Source of the DNA: a bacterium
Lineage (GTDB): Bacteria > Patescibacteriota > Patescibacteriia > Veblenbacterales > UBA10138
Direction: 5' to 3'
DNA length: 64,000 bases
Assembly: GCA_020057885.1 (NCBI GenBank)
Contig: JAGVEX010000006.1
Coordinates: 23,850-87,849 of the forward strand
A program made the translations under genes and the position numbers. Under the pieces are notes generated by a model. It ran no database searches. It was not told the origin of the DNA and saw nothing but the letters and a program-made list of their open reading frames with translations. The first letter of the stretch is position 1; each line of letters begins with the position of its first letter. Below, in pieces: positions 4,386 to 20,456 of the stretch.

Positions 4386-4715
4386 ATGTTAGTTATCCGT
4401 TTAGCACGTATCGGTAAAAAGAAACAGGCTTATTTCCGCTTGATTGTATCGGAAAAAACCAAAGATACTCAAGGTGATTATTTGGAATTATTAGGCCAAG
4501 TAAATCCACACACCAATCCCCGCCAAATTACTTTAAAGGCGGATCGGATAAAGTATTGGTTAGAGCACGGAGCCACAGTTTCGCCCTCAGTGCATAATAT
4601 TTTAATTGAGCAAGGTGTATTAAAGGGCGATAAATTACGCGTGTGGAAGGCAAAAAAAGTTGAGAAAACAGAAGTCGCGGCGCAACCTGCCGCACCAGCT
4701 ACGCCAGCCGCTTAA
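4386..4715 (+). CDS. rpsP: 30S ribosomal protein S16
   Basis: MLVIRLARIGKKKQAYFRLIVSEKTKDTQGDYLELLGQVNPHTNP is the canonical S16 N-terminus; Ala/Pro-rich C-terminal extension. Confidence 0.9.
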   Translation: MLVIRLARIGKKKQAYFRLIVSEKTKDTQGDYLELLGQVNPHTNPRQITLKADRIKYWLEHGATVSPSVHNILIEQGVLKGDKLRVWKAKKVEKTEVAAQPAAPATPAA

Positions 4716-4903
4716 TGAATTTTTAGGGGCGCGGTTAGTGTATTAACATTTAACGTTTAACTAACAGGAACAGTTGTAAGTAATTAATTACTTTTGCGGA
4801 CAAAAGGTCGAGCACATTAACATTCTTCGCAAAATCATAAAACTTAAAACTATTTTCCTATTAGAAACGAAATTATCACAGTTAATTATTTATTACCACA
4901 CAC

Positions 4904-5263
4904 ATGAGCGAATCTATACCGAAGGACCAAGAGTTCATTGACTACGTCGTGAAAGCTTTGGTCGATCATTCAGATGATGTAAAAACCGAACGCACGGTTG
5001 ACGAAATGGGAGTACTTATTACTCTACACGTCAATCCGGAAGACATGGGTCAGGTAATTGGCCGCTCTGGTCAAACCGCCCGCAGTTTAAGAACATTACT
5101 ACGCGTCGTTGGTGCGAAGAACAATGCTCGCGTGAACTTGAAGATTTACGAACCAGAAGGAAGCCAAGGCCCTCGTCGCCCACGCTTTGAGCGTGAGTCT
5201 ATGCATGGCACTGGTCCTGTCGGTACTGCCGACACCTCCATGGTAGATGATCTCAAGATATAA
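4904..5263 (+). CDS. KH-domain RNA-binding protein (YlqC/UPF0109-like) with C-terminal extension
   Basis: VKALVDHSDDV...GVLITLHVNPEDMGQVIGRSGQTARSLRTLLRVVG matches the KH fold protein usually encoded after rpsP; C-ending-rich codons atypical for this genome. Confidence 0.7.
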   Translation: MSESIPKDQEFIDYVVKALVDHSDDVKTERTVDEMGVLITLHVNPEDMGQVIGRSGQTARSLRTLLRVVGAKNNARVNLKIYEPEGSQGPRRPRFERESMHGTGPVGTADTSMVDDLKI

Positions 5264-5273
5264 TATCTAAAAT

Positions 5274-5307
5274 TAAAACCACCCCGCCATTCGGCGGGGT
5301 GATTTTG
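5274..5307. terminator. Bidirectional rho-independent terminator hairpin between convergent genes
   Basis: AAAACCACCCCGCC-attc-GGCGGGGTGATTTTG; near-identical hairpin sequence recurs at 16063-16096. Confidence 0.5.
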
Positions 5308-5314
5308 TATTCGT

Positions 5315-6154
5315 TTATTTTTGTAAATGGAAGAATTTGTGGCAGAATTTTTTATATGCTTCTGCTCTAGTTTGATTATGTGAGATGGTAATTCTTACTC
5401 GATGGTTCTGTTTGAGAATGACTGTAAGGCGCGCATTAGCTTCACTATTCCATAGGGCGATCCGTTGATAAAAATTATCAATTGCATTCGACATTTTTTT
5501 ATCGAGCCAGACTTCAATCAACACATTGCCGAATACATTCAGATAATAGTTATTATTTTTAAAGCGTGGCTGTGAAAGTGGGTGATACTGACTGCATTCG
5601 CCGTCAAAGTATTGGCGTACATGTCGGTCGAGTGGAGTATTATGACCAGCGAGTAGTAAAAATTGTTTTCCTCGGGATGTTATTGTTCGAATGACTTCTG
5701 TTTCATTCTCATGTCGTGCCAGCAGAAACCATTCATGAGGATTGTAAAGGTACACCGGTTCTGAAGCAGGAGCGTGTTCAGCGAGCAAATAGAATGCATG
5801 GGTCCAAAATACATCGGCCTTTAACGGGTTTGCAAAATGGTATGTAATGCGGTCGCCAGGGGAAAGGTTAGTAACATCGTCTCCAGCAACTTCACCACCC
5901 GCATAGTTGCGCTTGGCGTTAACAATAAACCGTGTGAGTCGATTAAGCCAGGTGGCGTTTAGGGCCGCGGTACCTTTGTACATCACAACTTCCTCACGAG
6001 ATTTTTGCTGCCTGAGTGCAGAATACACCGCCTGTTTTGTAGTATGGCGCCGTAAATGCTGAATTTCCTCTACTAGCTTAATGGCTAGTAGGGGGCCTTT
6101 TGCTAGTCGCTCAACTATTAAATCCTCAATTTTTCTTGGTTTGAGTAGTGACAT
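5315..6154 (-). CDS. Hypothetical protein with N-terminal winged-helix-like domain and about 200 aa C-terminal domain of unknown family
   Basis: 279-aa ORF, Trp/His-rich, codon usage (CTA, CTC, ACA, CGA, TAC) unlike neighbouring core genes; N-terminal 60 aa resemble a wHTH; no family recognised by eye. Confidence 0.5.
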   Translation of the reverse strand: MSLLKPRKIEDLIVERLAKGPLLAIKLVEEIQHLRRHTTKQAVYSALRQQKSREEVVMYKGTAALNATWLNRLTRFIVNAKRNYAGGEVAGDDVTNLSPGDRITYHFANPLKADVFWTHAFYLLAEHAPASEPVYLYNPHEWFLLARHENETEVIRTITSRGKQFLLLAGHNTPLDRHVRQYFDGECSQYHPLSQPRFKNNNYYLNVFGNVLIEVWLDKKMSNAIDNFYQRIALWNSEANARLTVILKQNHRVRITISHNQTRAEAYKKFCHKFFHLQK

Positions 6155-6292
6155 AGTATAGTATTCCAGTAAAATATTTTTTTACTAATAAACCAATTAT
6201 AGCGTATTTATTGCCATTTGTCCAGCCCCAAAGTAGCCTGCATGGTTAAAACAAAAATAACTATCTTTAAAAAATTAATAAAGGAGAATACA

Positions 6293-7090
6293 GTGAAAAG
6301 ACTCATAATTATTAATGGCGTCACAGGCGCCTTGGGCAGCGCCTGCCTTGCTCTCTGCAGTCGCAATCCAGAAAATACAATTTATGGATGGAGTCGTAAA
6401 GGATTGCCCTATATGGATTTCCTAGTGTCAGGAATTATGCCCGATGTAACTTTAATTTGTTCCGTAGGCAAAGAAGATTTGAAAGGTTATCACATGCTCT
6501 TGGATAGAATTAATTTCTCGTTGTATGAGAAAGTAATCTATATCCATGCCCTAGGAGTATATCCCTTTGAAATTAGTCCAGAAGGAACAATTACGGTTAC
6601 TGACGACCACGATAAGGATGGTATCAATGACCTTGTCACTAAACTGTCCCACGACTTTTTCTTGAGCGTGCTGAATAAGCTTATTAAGAAAAGTGCCAGG
6701 GTGCAGGCTTTGATTTTCGGTGGACTGGTTGATAAGCATGAGCCGTTAGTTCATCAATCATGGTGGAAAACCATGAAGAAAATTAAGGCGCGATGTATTG
6801 AGGTTGTGTCTAAAAACAAAAAAGTTAGCGTTATGGTGCTTAATATCAGTAGTGTTATTTGTCCTAATGAGCTGATCACTCGGCCATTCGTCTTTAGGGA
6901 TACCGACGCTAAGTCTTGTTTTTGGCTAATGCCGCACGAGGTCGCGGAAGAGGTAGATCGTCTGACCACTGGTGACTCTCAAGGTTTTTACGAGTGCGAG
7001 TTATTTCATCCATCAGGGTACTATCGACCAGGGTACTATGCGGATGAAAATTTCACTGTGCGAAAAAAACGGGAGCTGGGTATTCTATAG
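6293..7090 (+). CDS. Hypothetical Rossmann-like (SDR-like) protein
   Basis: GTG start 6 nt after AAGGAG; N-terminal KRLIIINGVTGALGSACLAL resembles a dinucleotide-binding glycine motif; atypical codon usage; the ORF track extends upstream to 6218. Confidence 0.5.
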   Translation: MKRLIIINGVTGALGSACLALCSRNPENTIYGWSRKGLPYMDFLVSGIMPDVTLICSVGKEDLKGYHMLLDRINFSLYEKVIYIHALGVYPFEISPEGTITVTDDHDKDGINDLVTKLSHDFFLSVLNKLIKKSARVQALIFGGLVDKHEPLVHQSWWKTMKKIKARCIEVVSKNKKVSVMVLNISSVICPNELITRPFVFRDTDAKSCFWLMPHEVAEEVDRLTTGDSQGFYECELFHPSGYYRPGYYADENFTVRKKRELGIL

Positions 7091-7275
7091 GAAAAATCCA
7101 AACAAAGTGTGCTGAAAAATAGTAGCGCCTCTGGTTAGGTGGGTTGCTTCCCGCCTGAAACTGAAAACTGTCGTGAGATAGTCAATAAGCAAAAAATAAA
7201 AGTCAGTCGCTATAATCGTAACTGACTTTTTTATTATTGAAAAAATTACTACTATGTGTTAACGTATTAATGTTT

Positions 7276-7974
7276 ATGAAACATTTTGATATTATTTCCA
7301 TTTTTCCAAATTCGCTTGATTCGTACTTTAGTACGAGTATTTTAAAGCGCGCGCAAGAAAAGAAACTTATTAAAATTCAAACACATGATTTGCGGAAATA
7401 TTCCACTGATAAGCACCACAAAGTTGACGACCGTGTGTATGGCGGTGGGGCGGGAATGGTGATGAAAGTTGAACCTATCGTTCGTGCGTTGCACGAAATC
7501 AAATTTAAAAATCCCTGCCTTGCCGGCAGGCAGGAAAAATCAAAAATTAAAATTAAAGAACGAATTATTTTACTTGCGGCGAATGGGAAGCAATTTACCC
7601 AAAAAGACGCCAAGCGGCTAGCCAAGTATGAACGTTTAATTTTTATCTGCGGTCGGTACGAAGGCGTGGATGCACGCGTGGAAAAATTTATTGATGAAAA
7701 AATTTCAATAGGTAATTATGTCGTAACCGGCGGTGAACTTCCAGCGGCAATTATTATTGATGCCGTGTCACGCATGATCCCTGGCGTGGTAGGCAAAGAA
7801 GAGTCGGTGCAGAACGAATCTTTTTCTGAAGGAGTTAATTTGGAGCATCCGCAGTATACTCGCCCTGAGGTTTTTGTGGCAGGTAAAAAAAAGCTAATAG
7901 TCCCCAAAGTTTTACTAGGTGGAAATCACAGGAATATAGCCGTCTGGCGAGCAAAGAAATCAAAAGGTAAATAA
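7276..7974 (+). CDS. trmD: tRNA (guanine37-N1)-methyltransferase
   Basis: MKHFDIISIFP...VDDRVYGGGAGMVMKVEPI...LLAANGKQF...IFICGRYEGVDARV...GNYVVTGGELPAAIIIDAVSR: TrmD motifs; the ORF track starts at an upstream TTG, and ATG 7276 is more likely. Confidence 0.85.
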   Translation: MKHFDIISIFPNSLDSYFSTSILKRAQEKKLIKIQTHDLRKYSTDKHHKVDDRVYGGGAGMVMKVEPIVRALHEIKFKNPCLAGRQEKSKIKIKERIILLAANGKQFTQKDAKRLAKYERLIFICGRYEGVDARVEKFIDEKISIGNYVVTGGELPAAIIIDAVSRMIPGVVGKEESVQNESFSEGVNLEHPQYTRPEVFVAGKKKLIVPKVLLGGNHRNIAVWRAKKSKGK

Positions 7975-8023: not shown

Positions 8024-8524
8024 TTAATTTTTATGAAATCCGATGTGTTCCAAAAGTTGATATAATCTTTCGAGCCGATCATCTTTCTCACCCCTAAAAA
8101 CCCTTTGTAACGTCAATTGACCTCGTGCTAACACTTCAAAATTTATGGGTTTGATATTATTTTTTTGATTTTGACTTACTTTTGATAGATAAAGAGTAGC
8201 TTCTTCTACATACCAGCGAGTTACACCAGAGACATTTTCTTTGTATAGTTTGGCTTTTATTAATAATGAGGGGGAAAGAGCCTTGCCATAACCAAACCTG
8301 GTGGTTTTTATTATAACCGTGCGGTATGTGTAGTCTAATGTAGAATTATCATCCTCCTCTATATTGGGTAGAGTATAAAAATCAATTTCTCCTTCGTGAT
8401 TTGGCCAACATAAATTTGGAAGTTTATTTTCATTGAATTTATGTATAGCTAAATCTATTGAAGTTACAGTTTGAATAACAGCAACTGTAAAACTGTGTAT
8501 TTCTACTTTTTTATTTTTAGGCAT
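8024..8524 (-). CDS. Hypothetical protein
   Basis: ORF with plausible start MPKNKK after AGGGA; no recognisable family; lies between trmD and the rRNA promoter where rplS would be expected. Confidence 0.4.
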   Translation of the reverse strand: MPKNKKVEIHSFTVAVIQTVTSIDLAIHKFNENKLPNLCWPNHEGEIDFYTLPNIEEDDNSTLDYTYRTVIIKTTRFGYGKALSPSLLIKAKLYKENVSGVTRWYVEEATLYLSKVSQNQKNNIKPINFEVLARGQLTLQRVFRGEKDDRLERLYQLLEHIGFHKN

Positions 8525-8739
8525 AAACTTATCCCTGTTCCGCAAGCATCGCGCTTGCAATGTTGGTTTGACATCGCCGCCCTCACGGTGGCTATTTAGT
8601 TTTTTAGGTACTACTTTTGATTTTATATTAACTTAGTCCAAACTATAGTTTTTGTCAACAGAATGAGTGGTTGTTTGGAGGCAAAAAACCTCTAAAAAAG
8701 CGAAGATTTAAGCATGTTGTTAAGTTGTGGGTTAACCTC

Positions 8740-8768
8740 TTGACAAACCTAAACCCGGGGGTTATACT
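8740..8768 (+). promoter_or_regulatory. rRNA promoter TTGACA-17-TATACT about 330 nt upstream of 16S
   Basis: Perfect consensus -35 and near-perfect -10 with 17-nt spacer. Confidence 0.5.
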
Positions 8769-8918
8769 ACAGGAGCTTACTTTATAAGTAACTTTCAAAA
8801 CTGGCACATAAAATACTTCTCTATCAATTCGTTCGGAGGAGAAAAAACAGTGGTACTTGAGCTCAAAGCTCTCTAGTATCTCTGTTTTTTCTACGCCATA
8901 AATAGTGTAGAGAAAATT

Positions 8919-8931
8919 TGTTCTTTAATAA
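8919..8931 (+). promoter_or_regulatory. boxA-like antitermination element in rRNA leader
   Basis: TGTTCTTTAATAA versus the boxA consensus TGCTCTTTAACAA (2 mismatches), located in the leader between promoter and 16S. Confidence 0.3.
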
Positions 8932-9090
8932 GTGATAGGAAGAACCAAGTACGTCAGTTTCTATCTATGCGAATTTATTTTTGCATAAGATGATTGGTTT
9001 TAGGTTCTAGCAACACTTGCTGTGTTGCCTGTAACCTGGCTGTCCAATTTAAAAAACAGCCGAATTTATAGAGCCTTCAATACTCTAAAA

Positions 9091-10596
<1,506 letters not shown>

Positions 10597-10934
10597 AGGG
10601 AGTTTTCTCTAGGGTGGTTATACACTACCTTTAATTTTATTAAAGATGTCGTATGATCACTATAGGTCGTTTTATTCCATTTTTTGGGATAACTCCGGAA
10701 TTGACACCTCATTACCCGTAAGGGTTTATGTAGGTAGTATGAATTTCTTCCTCTCACTTATTAGAGAACAAAATAAAATCCAGCTTATTAAAAAGCTGGA
10801 TTTTGTATAATAGACTTGATTTACAAAATCTATTTTGCTACTATACGGGAGCGATTTTGGCTCGTATATAAATGGTAGTATTATTAAGCAGTTAGACTGC
10901 TTGCCATAAACTATTAGCCATTTGCTAAATTAGG

Positions 10935-11011
10935 GGGTGTGTAGCTCAGCTGGTTAGAGCACTTCACTGATAATGAAGAGGCCGATGGTTCGAGTCCATC
11001 CACACCCACCA
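10935..11011 (+). tRNA. tRNA-Ile (anticodon GAT) including encoded CCA
   Basis: GGGTGTGTAGCTCAGCTGGTTAGAGCACTTCACTGATAATGAAGAGGCCGATGGTTCGAGTCCATCCACACCCACCA folds as a cloverleaf; 7-bp acceptor stem GGGTGTG/CACACCC; anticodon loop CTGATAA. Confidence 0.9.
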
Positions 11012-11390: not shown

Positions 11391-12956
11391 ATGATAACCG
11401 ATCAATTGCGGGATTATGTTAAACAGCAACTTGCTTTGGGTGTTACCAAGGATGATGTTAAAGCCAGACTTGTGGCTCGCGGCTGGGTTCAAAATGATAT
11501 TGAAGCTGTTTTAGCTCCCTCTGTTCAAGGTACGGCCCCATCTCAACCTAGTGTACAATCACAACCATTATCACCGTTTCAAGCTTTAGCACAACAACCA
11601 AATCCCGAAGCTAATACACAGCCAACTGTGTCTACTCAGCAGGTTTCACCGCTTAAGCCAGTTTCGACTCCTACTGTTATGCCACAAGTTTCTTTGCAGG
11701 CGGCTATGAGCGCTTCGCCTACTTTTGCACAAAATTCTAAGTCTAGTAAAAAAATATGGCTAGCAGCTGGTTTGGCAGTGGTGGTTTTATTATTAGCCGG
11801 TGGAGCGTGGGCTTATTATACTTATTATTTGCAGGCACCAGAAAGAGTTTTAGTAAAAATGCTCGATAAATTAGCCGAGGTGAAGTCGAGCGAATATTCA
11901 GGTGAAATAAAAATTGAAACAGATTTTAGTAAATATAATTCTTATTCGCTTTTACCTTCCAATAATAAAGATAATCAGGCTCAAACTGGAAAATTAACAA
12001 TTAAGTTTAATGGTATTTCAGAAACGCAAGTACAGGATTTAAATGATTTAAAAATGGCTGCCTCAATTACAGCTGTTCCAGAAAATATGGCCGAGCTTAA
12101 TAGTAATTTAGGTATTGAACTTAGGATGTTGGGTAAAATTATGTTTATTAAATTAACCGAAGTTCCTAACTTAGGGTTAGTTGATTTGAGTACCATTAAA
12201 GATCAGTGGATAAGATTTGATTTTGATGCTATGGCCAAACAATTTGGTGCGGCAGAAAAAGTTCAAGAGTTTGAAACACAACAGAAAGCAGTTTTAGATA
12301 AATTTTCCCAGTTGCGCCAAGCCGTTATAACTTCTGGTTTATTTAAGGTAGCCGAAAAACTATCAGGGGAGACAATCGATGGCGTTTCTACCTATCATTA
12401 TAAAATTATTTTAGATAAAGATGGTTTGCAAAATTTCTTCACCCAAGTTAATAAAATTATTAATGAATCCGAACTTACCACAGATCAACAAACTGAGCTT
12501 GAGACTAATTTAAGCAAGTTAGCGAGCTTACCGGCAGGAGAAATTTGGATTGGTAAAAAGGATTATTTACCCCGTAAAATTTATTTTGAAAATACTACGC
12601 CAGCCGATGAATCAACTTCTTCCACCAAAATCACCGTTACTTATTTTATGTCCAAATTTAATGAGCCAGTGCAGGTTGATATTCCAGAACAATCAAAATC
12701 AATTGAGGAGCTTGTTGCTGGTATAATGGGTGATTTAAATACGGAGTCCAATATTCCTACACCAGATTTAAACAAAGATTCAGATAATGACGGTTTGTCA
12801 GATTATCTGGAAAGTTATTATGGCACTAATCCTAACAATCCAGATACAGATGGTGATGGCTACAAAGATGGCGATGAAGTTAAAAATGGATATAATCCTA
12901 ATGGTTCGGGTAAGGAAATTTTACCGCCACCCCAGCCCGCTACTCTTCCTGAATGA
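11391..12956 (+). CDS. Hypothetical membrane-anchored surface protein with C-terminal Asp-rich calcium-binding-like repeats
   Basis: Pro/Gln-rich N-terminus, one TM helix (IWLAAGLAVVVLLLAGGAWAYY), C-terminal DSDNDGLSDY..NPDTDGDGYKDGDE (thrombospondin-type-3-like DxDxDG). Confidence 0.6.
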   Translation: MITDQLRDYVKQQLALGVTKDDVKARLVARGWVQNDIEAVLAPSVQGTAPSQPSVQSQPLSPFQALAQQPNPEANTQPTVSTQQVSPLKPVSTPTVMPQVSLQAAMSASPTFAQNSKSSKKIWLAAGLAVVVLLLAGGAWAYYTYYLQAPERVLVKMLDKLAEVKSSEYSGEIKIETDFSKYNSYSLLPSNNKDNQAQTGKLTIKFNGISETQVQDLNDLKMAASITAVPENMAELNSNLGIELRMLGKIMFIKLTEVPNLGLVDLSTIKDQWIRFDFDAMAKQFGAAEKVQEFETQQKAVLDKFSQLRQAVITSGLFKVAEKLSGETIDGVSTYHYKIILDKDGLQNFFTQVNKIINESELTTDQQTELETNLSKLASLPAGEIWIGKKDYLPRKIYFENTTPADESTSSTKITVTYFMSKFNEPVQVDIPEQSKSIEELVAGIMGDLNTESNIPTPDLNKDSDNDGLSDYLESYYGTNPNNPDTDGDGYKDGDEVKNGYNPNGSGKEILPPPQPATLPE

Positions 12957-19478: not shown

Positions 19479-20456
19479 TCAAAGTATTAATGAGTAAATG
19501 TAACCAAGTAAAATAATAGCCACTGTTACTACACCATAGAATATAGTAATGAGTTTGCCTGTCATTACCTTTTTCAGCATCACTGCCGAAGGAATAGATA
19601 GACCAACCGCCGCCATCATAAAAGCTAATACGGCGCCTAATGGTATACCCTTATCCACGAGTACCTGCGCTATTGGTAATATACCAGCAGCATTGGCGTA
19701 TAATGGCACCGCTACAATCACAGCAATCGGCACAGCTATCAGGCTATTAATATTCAGATAAGTCTCAAAAAAACTAACAGGAACAAACCCATGAATAAAG
19801 GCACCAATGCCAACTCCTAAGACTACATATAAACCGACGGTTTTTATAATATCCAGAGACTCACCAAAGGCAATTTTTATTTTTTCAGTAAAATTTTTAT
19901 TCGTTTGAGGCGTAATATTATTATCAGTTTGTGCTGTGGATTTTAACACCCATGGCGATAGATATTTCTCAAGGGACATTTTTCCCAGTATGTAACCAGC
20001 GATTAAGGATACAATTATTCCACTTATTACATATATGATGGTTGTTTTGATGCCAAACACACCCATAAGCATGGCAATAACCACCGAATCAACCAAGGGT
20101 GAGCTAATAAGAAAAGTTAGCGTAACGCCTAAGGGAATACCTCCGCGCACAAATCCTATAAAAAGCGGTACTGAAGAACATGAGCAGAATGGTGTAATAG
20201 TGCCAAAGAGTGCAGCTAGTAAATAATCTGCTCCATATAATTTTTTGGTGGTAAGGTATGTTCGAACTTTTTCTACAGGAAAGTATGCATTTACTAACCC
20301 CATAACCGAGGCAATGACAAAAAGAAGAATAAATATCTTTAGTGTGTCATAAATAAAAAAGCTACTACTTTCGCCCAATTGGCTTGTCTTATCTATTAAA
20401 AAAATACTATAAGTGACCCAGTTGGCGAATAGTTGCAGTGGGTAGAAGATATCCAT
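19479..20456 (-). CDS. Predicted permease (COG0701/DUF318-like, multi-TM)
   Basis: About 8-10 hydrophobic helices with a Cys-rich segment FCSCSSVPL; the family is typically paired with a redox-active disulfide protein, as it is here. Confidence 0.6.
   Translation of the reverse strand: MDIFYPLQLFANWVTYSIFLIDKTSQLGESSSFFIYDTLKIFILLFVIASVMGLVNAYFPVEKVRTYLTTKKLYGADYLLAALFGTITPFCSCSSVPLFIGFVRGGIPLGVTLTFLISSPLVDSVVIAMLMGVFGIKTTIIYVISGIIVSLIAGYILGKMSLEKYLSPWVLKSTAQTDNNITPQTNKNFTEKIKIAFGESLDIIKTVGLYVVLGVGIGAFIHGFVPVSFFETYLNINSLIAVPIAVIVAVPLYANAAGILPIAQVLVDKGIPLGAVLAFMMAAVGLSIPSAVMLKKVMTGKLITIFYGVVTVAIILLGYIYSLIL

Follow-up and report, generated by a model that had tools for sequence, protein, structure and literature searches.

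In the regulators TrmB and TrmBL2, a long helix between the winged helix-turn-helix (wHTH) and the C-terminal domain mediates dimerisation (PMC4158304, PMC4877046). Known TrmB operators are TACT/AGTA-based palindromes positioned at the promoter or the start site, and a tyrosine of the recognition helix (Tyr50 in TrmB) is critical for operator binding (PMC4158304). Here we describe a gene for a putative regulator, located at 5315..6154 on the minus strand of a 64,000-nucleotide stretch of Patescibacteria DNA (contig JAGVEX010000006.1; the window), and the operator-like palindrome upstream of it. Patescibacteria, also known as the candidate phyla radiation (CPR), are mostly uncultured; their genomes are small, with few recognisable regulators, and their transcription control is almost undescribed. 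No paper was found on TrmB in Patescibacteria, on regulators in CPR that join a wHTH to a phospholipase D (PLD)-like domain, or on the regulator family itself. The best explanation of our results is that the regulator is a distant TrmB/TrmBL2 relative, of a family specific to Patescibacteria, which most likely acts as a repressor of its own promoter by way of a 19-bp palindrome.

The regulator gene runs from an ATG to a stop codon at 5315-5317 and encodes 279 amino acids (aa). It was a listed open reading frame (ORF), and homologues of conserved length and a confident AlphaFold2 model support it. An earlier note on this DNA had described a wHTH regulator with a C-terminal domain of no assigned family, divergent from a Rossmann-like gene. 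This description was borne out by the AlphaFold2 model and by the short-chain dehydrogenase/reductase (SDR) fold predicted for the neighbouring gene product.

A conserved palindrome upstream of the regulator gene

For 82 non-redundant loci, we aligned the 220 bp that precede the start codon. The palindrome AGTAAA-N7-TTTACT was perfect in 47 of them, with at most one mismatch in 69 and at most two in 76. It usually ended 23-30 nt short of the ATG and immediately followed -10-like boxes. About 30 nt upstream of the palindrome stood a conserved TTGTCA/TTGACA box, and in other loci -35/-10-like boxes preceded the palindrome. Arm positions 1-6 and 14-19 were conserved in 67-75 of 75 sequences: it is the sequence itself that is kept, beyond complementarity. 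Across 891,202 bp of locus sequence there were 47 perfect palindromes, every one upstream of a regulator gene. Eight one-mismatch palindromes occurred elsewhere in this sequence. One belonged to a truncated regulator copy, and another (L067 1922-1940) duplicates the variant operator of its locus (ATTAAAC..ATTTACT) ahead of a 168-aa ORF, some 600 bp upstream of the regulator; this is the sole candidate for an extra regulon site.

In the window, the palindrome (AGTAAAATATTTTTTTACT; AGTAAA-N7-TTTACT) occupies 6168..6186, identified by its conservation upstream of orthologues, and is the only perfect match in the 64 kb. The only one-mismatch site, 20277-20295 (AGGAAAGTATGCATTTACT), is at chance level, with 0.81 expected. 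A sigma-70-type promoter of the regulator was recognised at 6196..6224 on the minus strand, with TGGACA at 6224-6219, a 17-nt spacer and TATAAT at 6201-6196 (11/12 consensus). With the usual -10-to-start spacing from this TATAAT, the palindrome would span about +3 to +21, the classic position for a repressor.

The recognition helix of the window protein (TTKQAVYSALR) covers roughly residues 38-52, encoded at 5999-6043 on the minus strand. In the family motif, TTKQAVYxALR, Q41 and Y44 were conserved, and Y44 was invariant. Arg48 stands four residues after Tyr44. Half-site position 4 was A in all loci with Arg48 (66/66), while loci with Lys, Gln or Thr at residue 48 carried AGTCAA and/or TTGACT in 7 of 9 cases. 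The variant loci differed visibly in recognition helices and flanks, which suggests that they represent several independent lineages. This co-variation of residue 48 and base 4 links the recognition helix directly to the palindrome. A palindrome that is family-wide, confined to the regulator gene and co-varying with the recognition helix indicates sequence-specific binding.

These results argue for the regulator being, probably, a sequence-specific, dimeric TrmB/TrmBL2-like repressor that acts on a palindrome over its own transcription start. Its long helix would join two monomers into a dimer, and the dimer would occupy the palindrome overlapping the transcription start and so repress the regulator's own transcription. 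A different role would be that of a nucleoid-associated, TrmBL2-like chromatin protein, coating DNA with little sequence specificity. We consider this quite unlikely, as the palindrome is specific, conserved in the family, present only at the regulator gene and matched to the recognition helix.

Predicted fold and relation to TrmB and TrmBL2

The AlphaFold2 model, built from the family alignment, was confident (mean predicted local distance difference test score 87.3). Its N-terminus is a canonical winged helix (residues 1-66; 5957..6154, minus strand), with helices at 9-17, 24-34 and 40-52 and wing strands at 56-59 and 62-65. A long amphipathic helix (residues 67-84; 5903..5956, minus strand), a low-confidence linker (85-100) and an alpha/beta domain (residues 101-279; 5318..5854, minus strand) follow. 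In the long helix, W69 was conserved in 98% of members and hydrophobic residues were spaced W69-L73-F76-A80. From the model and by analogy with TrmB and TrmBL2, this helix is presumed to dimerise the protein as a coiled coil.

The alpha/beta domain has the PLD fold. Fold matches, each given with its structure and two match values, were obtained to NucT (6ehi; 10.6, 128), Nuc (1bys; 10.2, 128), FAM83B (5lzk; 10.0, 125) and Zucchini (4ggj; 9.4, 127), as well as to TrmBL2 (5bpd; 10.3, 136) and TrmB (3qph; 9.0, 151), both of which share the overall layout of the regulator, and to the TrmB effector domain alone (2f5t; 8.9, 116). Foldseek was in agreement (NucT E 3.3e-4, Nuc E 2.3e-3). The HxKx4D signature (HKD motif) of catalytic PLD enzymes was found in only 4/205 members, at inconsistent positions, and the sole conserved Lys of the domain is K263. 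Judging from hairpin location and hhalign register, the HKD motif would be expected in a beta-hairpin that here reads NNYYLNvFGnvLIEVWLD. Both halves of the protein were strongly conserved. Residues conserved in at least 92% of the 205 members were W69, F107, D114, W117, H119, H140, W142, F143, E151, D176, Y204 and F275; D114, H119, H140, E151, D176 and Y204 were the most conserved polar residues of the C-terminal domain. The C-terminal family motifs were FWTHA, YNPHEWF, NNYYLN and IEVWLD.

Alternatively, the protein could be a bifunctional enzyme-repressor, or mainly an enzyme, with a non-HKD active site of conserved His, Asp and Glu in the PLD-fold domain. An example would be a metal-dependent hydrolase or phosphodiesterase of nucleic acid or a small molecule, for which the wHTH provides targeting or autoregulation in the logic of BirA. 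The six polar residues are conserved above what would be expected of most sensor pockets, they appear to lie at strand ends and helix starts, the usual places of alpha/beta active sites, the protein is His-rich, and its closest matches in fold were the nucleases NucT and Nuc. The HKD signature is absent, however, with NNYYLN..IEVWLD in the hairpin, and PLD folds that lack it, such as TrmB, TrmBL2 and FAM83, are non-catalytic; on balance an enzyme, bifunctional or not, seems unlikely. For the TrmB/TrmBL2-like repressor, the PLD-like domain is presumed to be effector-binding: an effector bound at the nearly invariant His/Asp/Glu/Tyr cluster would release or strengthen DNA binding. This effector part is less certain than the regulator-operator core.

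The order of wHTH, long amphipathic helix and HKD-less PLD-like domain is that of TrmB and TrmBL2. Profile-profile comparison was performed with TrmB-like proteins of ~253 aa encoded near some regulator genes, whose own profile aligned with TrmBL2 from end to end (E 9.4e-15). With hhalign, the regulator family against a single TrmB-like sequence gave a probability of 0.3% and the shallow 49-sequence family alignment gave 15%, neither significant. Against the TrmB-like profile, the 136-sequence alignment gave a probability of 75% (E 2.5e-5, 198 columns) and the 205-sequence alignment 91% (E 9.2e-7, 203 collinear columns). The DNA-binding domain alone gave E 1.5e-6. We conclude from these sequence profiles that the DNA-binding domain is a remote TrmB-type wHTH; for the C-terminal domain, the grounds for kinship with TrmB are its fold and its collinearity.

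In 24/~83 loci, a canonical TrmB/TrmBL2-like gene (~253 aa, PF01978) lay no more than 6 kb to either side of the regulator, and 9 of the 24 were within ~1 kb downstream (examples are L019 7047-7808, L021, L023, L033, L039, L043 and L046). The 64-kb window contained no canonical TrmB-like gene. The density near the regulator, ~1 per 31 kb, is far above the level that a ~1-Mb genome could sustain and suggests clustering of paralogous regulators.

No curated family model covers the regulator family. The window protein had no significant match in Pfam, NCBIfam, PADLOC or PHROGs, and searches of PDB sequences by phmmer and hmmsearch with three alignments returned nothing significant; the Pfam and structure-prediction checks proposed in the earlier note thus yielded a PLD fold for the C-terminal domain and no Pfam family. 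A word-indexed search gave 74 homologue clusters at E <= 1e-3, nearly all of 275-285 aa. All were unnamed or 'hypothetical', none had a Pfam domain, and every labelled cluster was from Patescibacteria (Kerfeldbacteria, Moranbacteria or 'Patescibacteria group'). A profile run exhaustively over 1.84 billion 50%-identity representatives collected 1703 family members with E <= 1e-3, of which 347 had E <= 1e-30; the ORF is therefore real and conserved. When one genome per species was scanned, relatives were present in at least 91 GTDB species, including Paceibacterota, Nomura-, Morani-, Kerfeld-, Uhr-, Wolfe-, Adler- and Komeilibacteria. The scan of viral contigs gave zero relatives.

Two side observations concern individual loci. 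L037 holds two regulator paralogues, at 5998-6840 and 8594-9421. In an 83%-identical relative (L014 2088-3855) the regulator and SDR genes were both fragmented and no operator was found; pseudogenes and assembly errors are the two explanations.

Several results weigh against the repressor reading. By Pfam criteria the regulator is not a member of the TrmB family: PF01978 and PF11495 reached not even E = 1 in the window protein or in any of 49 members, whereas the canonical TrmB-like neighbour ORFs matched PF01978 at E 1.6e-17. The C-terminal domain alone gave an hhalign P of 0.03, with mismatched controls at 0.12 and 0.22. Fisher's exact test for residue 48 and base 4 gave p = 1.8e-8, a value that ignores phylogeny. 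A second target site was sought in the window and in the ±6 kb flanks of 84 loci, and none was found beyond chance, with the L067 site as single candidate. The palindrome lies ~105 bp upstream of the start codon of the SDR-fold gene, a poor site for repressing it, and direct SDR repression is therefore not evident.

The remaining point is that the palindrome is able to form a weak RNA hairpin (mean minimum free energy -4.2 kcal/mol vs -0.6 for shuffles). It could accordingly be an RNA element, a hairpin of the 5' untranslated region acting in stability or translation independently of the regulator protein; it does lie inside the predicted 5' untranslated region, and the arm changes are symmetric. 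We regard this as very improbable: the arms are kept in sequence identity and not in mere complementarity, the stem is A/U-rich and weak, and the A to C change in the arms tracks the amino-acid change in the recognition helix. No Rfam family matched the region.

The divergent SDR-fold gene and the surrounding locus

The 265-aa SDR-fold gene lies at 6293..7090 on the plus strand, and its GTG start at 6293 is preceded by an AAGGAG ribosome-binding site. The earlier note had proposed checking whether homologues of the two genes co-occur. Of the ~82 loci whose upstream sequence was usable, 33 had an SDR-fold homologue upstream of the regulator, in every case on the opposite strand, and about 60% had none; the pairing is thus frequent, not obligatory. 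By the gene calls made here, 24 of the 33 were immediately adjacent to the regulator, and NCBI locus tags confirmed adjacency once (WC523_07635 and WC523_07640). No other recurrent upstream partner was seen: the remaining upstream ORFs were singletons or formed clusters of at most 5. These other genes were heterogeneous and almost always divergent, with gaps of 100-190 bp.

The SDR-fold family is Patescibacteria-specific and annotated 'hypothetical'. Its fold was predicted from database homologues, and its members have the TGxxGxxG dinucleotide-binding motif. Trp or Phe appears to stand at the expected catalytic Tyr of YxxxK (SWWKTMK; SFCEAK in the other subfamily), and D147, H154 and S156 were invariant. 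The product may be a non-canonical or non-catalytic NAD(P)-binding protein. Where present, the divergent gene would share the control region of the regulator, and a functional link is possible. A tentative extension, which we think rather unlikely, gives the HKD-less PLD domain a new, nearly invariant His/Asp/Glu/Tyr site. This site would bind a metal or central metabolite or itself be catalytic (a bifunctional enzyme-repressor), and it would be coupled to the SDR-fold protein without catalytic Tyr, perhaps through sensing of NAD(P)(H) or of that protein's product. If the site does sense a ligand or catalyse, it would represent a mode of PLD-fold sensing not described for TrmB proteins.

The earlier note had likened the architecture to antitoxin/regulator families such as AbiEi. 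An AbiEi-like antitoxin that pairs with the neighbouring gene, in toxin-antitoxin or abortive infection, would fit the wHTH joined to an unassigned C-terminal domain, the probable autoregulation, the divergent two-gene arrangement and the mildly atypical codon usage in both genes. The SDR-fold neighbour is not an AbiEii (DUF1814) nucleotidyltransferase, however, and about 60% of loci have no such partner. Among the Pfam matches listed for 49 members (the first 25 of 35 families) there was neither AbiEi nor AbiEii, PADLOC and PHROGs gave no match, and viral relatives were lacking. The C-terminal fold is PLD-like, as in TrmB and TrmBL2, and within a single phylum the family is common and vertically conserved. 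Together, these findings effectively refute an AbiEi-like antitoxin, the suggestion which we consider the least credible of those weighed. PADLOC, PHROGs and the viral contigs likewise gave no indication of a phage or defence origin of the locus.

The compositional features in the earlier note held in part. Synonymous codon usage was in the lower tail for both genes (regulator z -1.9, SDR-fold neighbour z -1.8), so that 'atypical codon usage' is at best weakly true, and the G+C content of the regulator gene was normal (z 0.8). Of the reported richness in Trp and His, the His enrichment was confirmed (5.0% vs 1.8% across window ORFs) and that of Trp was marginal.

The regulator gene is convergent with khpA (4904-5263; PF13083), and a bidirectional hairpin resembling an intrinsic terminator, with terminator-like sites on both strands, lies at 5275..5306 and would be common to both. 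Next after the SDR-fold gene is trmD (7237-7974; PF01746). The region 4386-7974 is an rpsP-khpA...trmD cluster without rimM between khpA and trmD, and the gap holds the regulator/SDR pair only. In an 89%-identical relative (L094; 1918-7250) the pair again adjoins khpA, and additional genes precede trmD: HATPase_c_2/DUF4325, and NTP_transf_2 with a 133-aa ORF, possibly an MNT/HEPN-like pair. Compared with the window, these extra genes make the khpA-trmD gap behave as a variable slot in that lineage. The gene context of the regulator varied among lineages; ubiquity at a syntenic site, which the earlier note had raised, therefore applies in that the family is widespread in Patescibacteria and fails as regards the site.

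Between trmD and the 16S rRNA gene lies a 178-aa ORF (8024-8560, minus strand; G+C 33%) with no Pfam, NCBIfam or PADLOC match. The 16S rRNA gene (9092-10594) is followed by tRNA-Ile (10935-11011) and then by a protein-coding gene (11391-12956) in place of 23S rRNA, which makes the rRNA operon an unlinked one. Of the ORFs listed within 9092-11011, several are artefacts.

Comparison with known systems

The regulator is unsurprising in kind, yet it is a concrete regulatory element for a poorly understood phylum. A widespread unannotated family, a precisely defined conserved putative operator and amino acid-base co-variation together make a directly testable regulator-DNA pair, which could be among the first transcription factor-operator pairs to be defined across the phylum Patescibacteria. 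A false lead is also removed, in that the locus is neither a toxin-antitoxin nor a defence module. We classify the family as a divergent branch, specific to its phylum, that combines TrmB/TrmBL2 architecture with a conserved pocket of its own and a defined putative operator whose sequence is unusually well kept. An architecture best studied in Archaea is thereby extended to divergent bacterial proteins whose conserved pocket differs.

Similarity to AbiEi antitoxins is limited to the N-terminal wHTH and likely negative autoregulation; the C-terminal fold differs, and the regulator gene is not mobile or phage-associated. The nucleases Nuc and NucT (1bys, 6ehi) share 9-11% sequence identity with the regulator. 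They have no wHTH, and the regulator has no HKD catalytic motif.

TrmB, TrmBL1 and VNG1451C (PF01978 + PF11495; 3qph, 2f5t) possess a C-terminal beta-sheet sugar-binding subdomain that is absent from the regulator. Unlike them, the regulator family is bacterial and confined to Patescibacteria. Half-site order and spacing also differ: AGTAAA-N7-TTTACT for the regulator, compared to TACT-N3-AGTA or TACT-N7-8-GAGTA for the TrmB type.

The closest likeness is to TrmBL2 (Pyrococcus/Thermococcus; 5bpd) and to the ~253-aa bacterial TrmBL2-like proteins, which have the same domain order and size. In both TrmBL2 and the regulator, the C-terminal part is one PLD-like domain that lacks the sugar-binding subdomain, and profile-profile similarity to the TrmBL2-like proteins of Patescibacteria was E 1e-6 to 2.5e-5. 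In contrast to TrmBL2, the regulator has its own set of His/Asp/Glu motifs, and its putative operator is highly specific, whereas the binding of TrmBL2 is broad and takes in coding as well as intergenic DNA.
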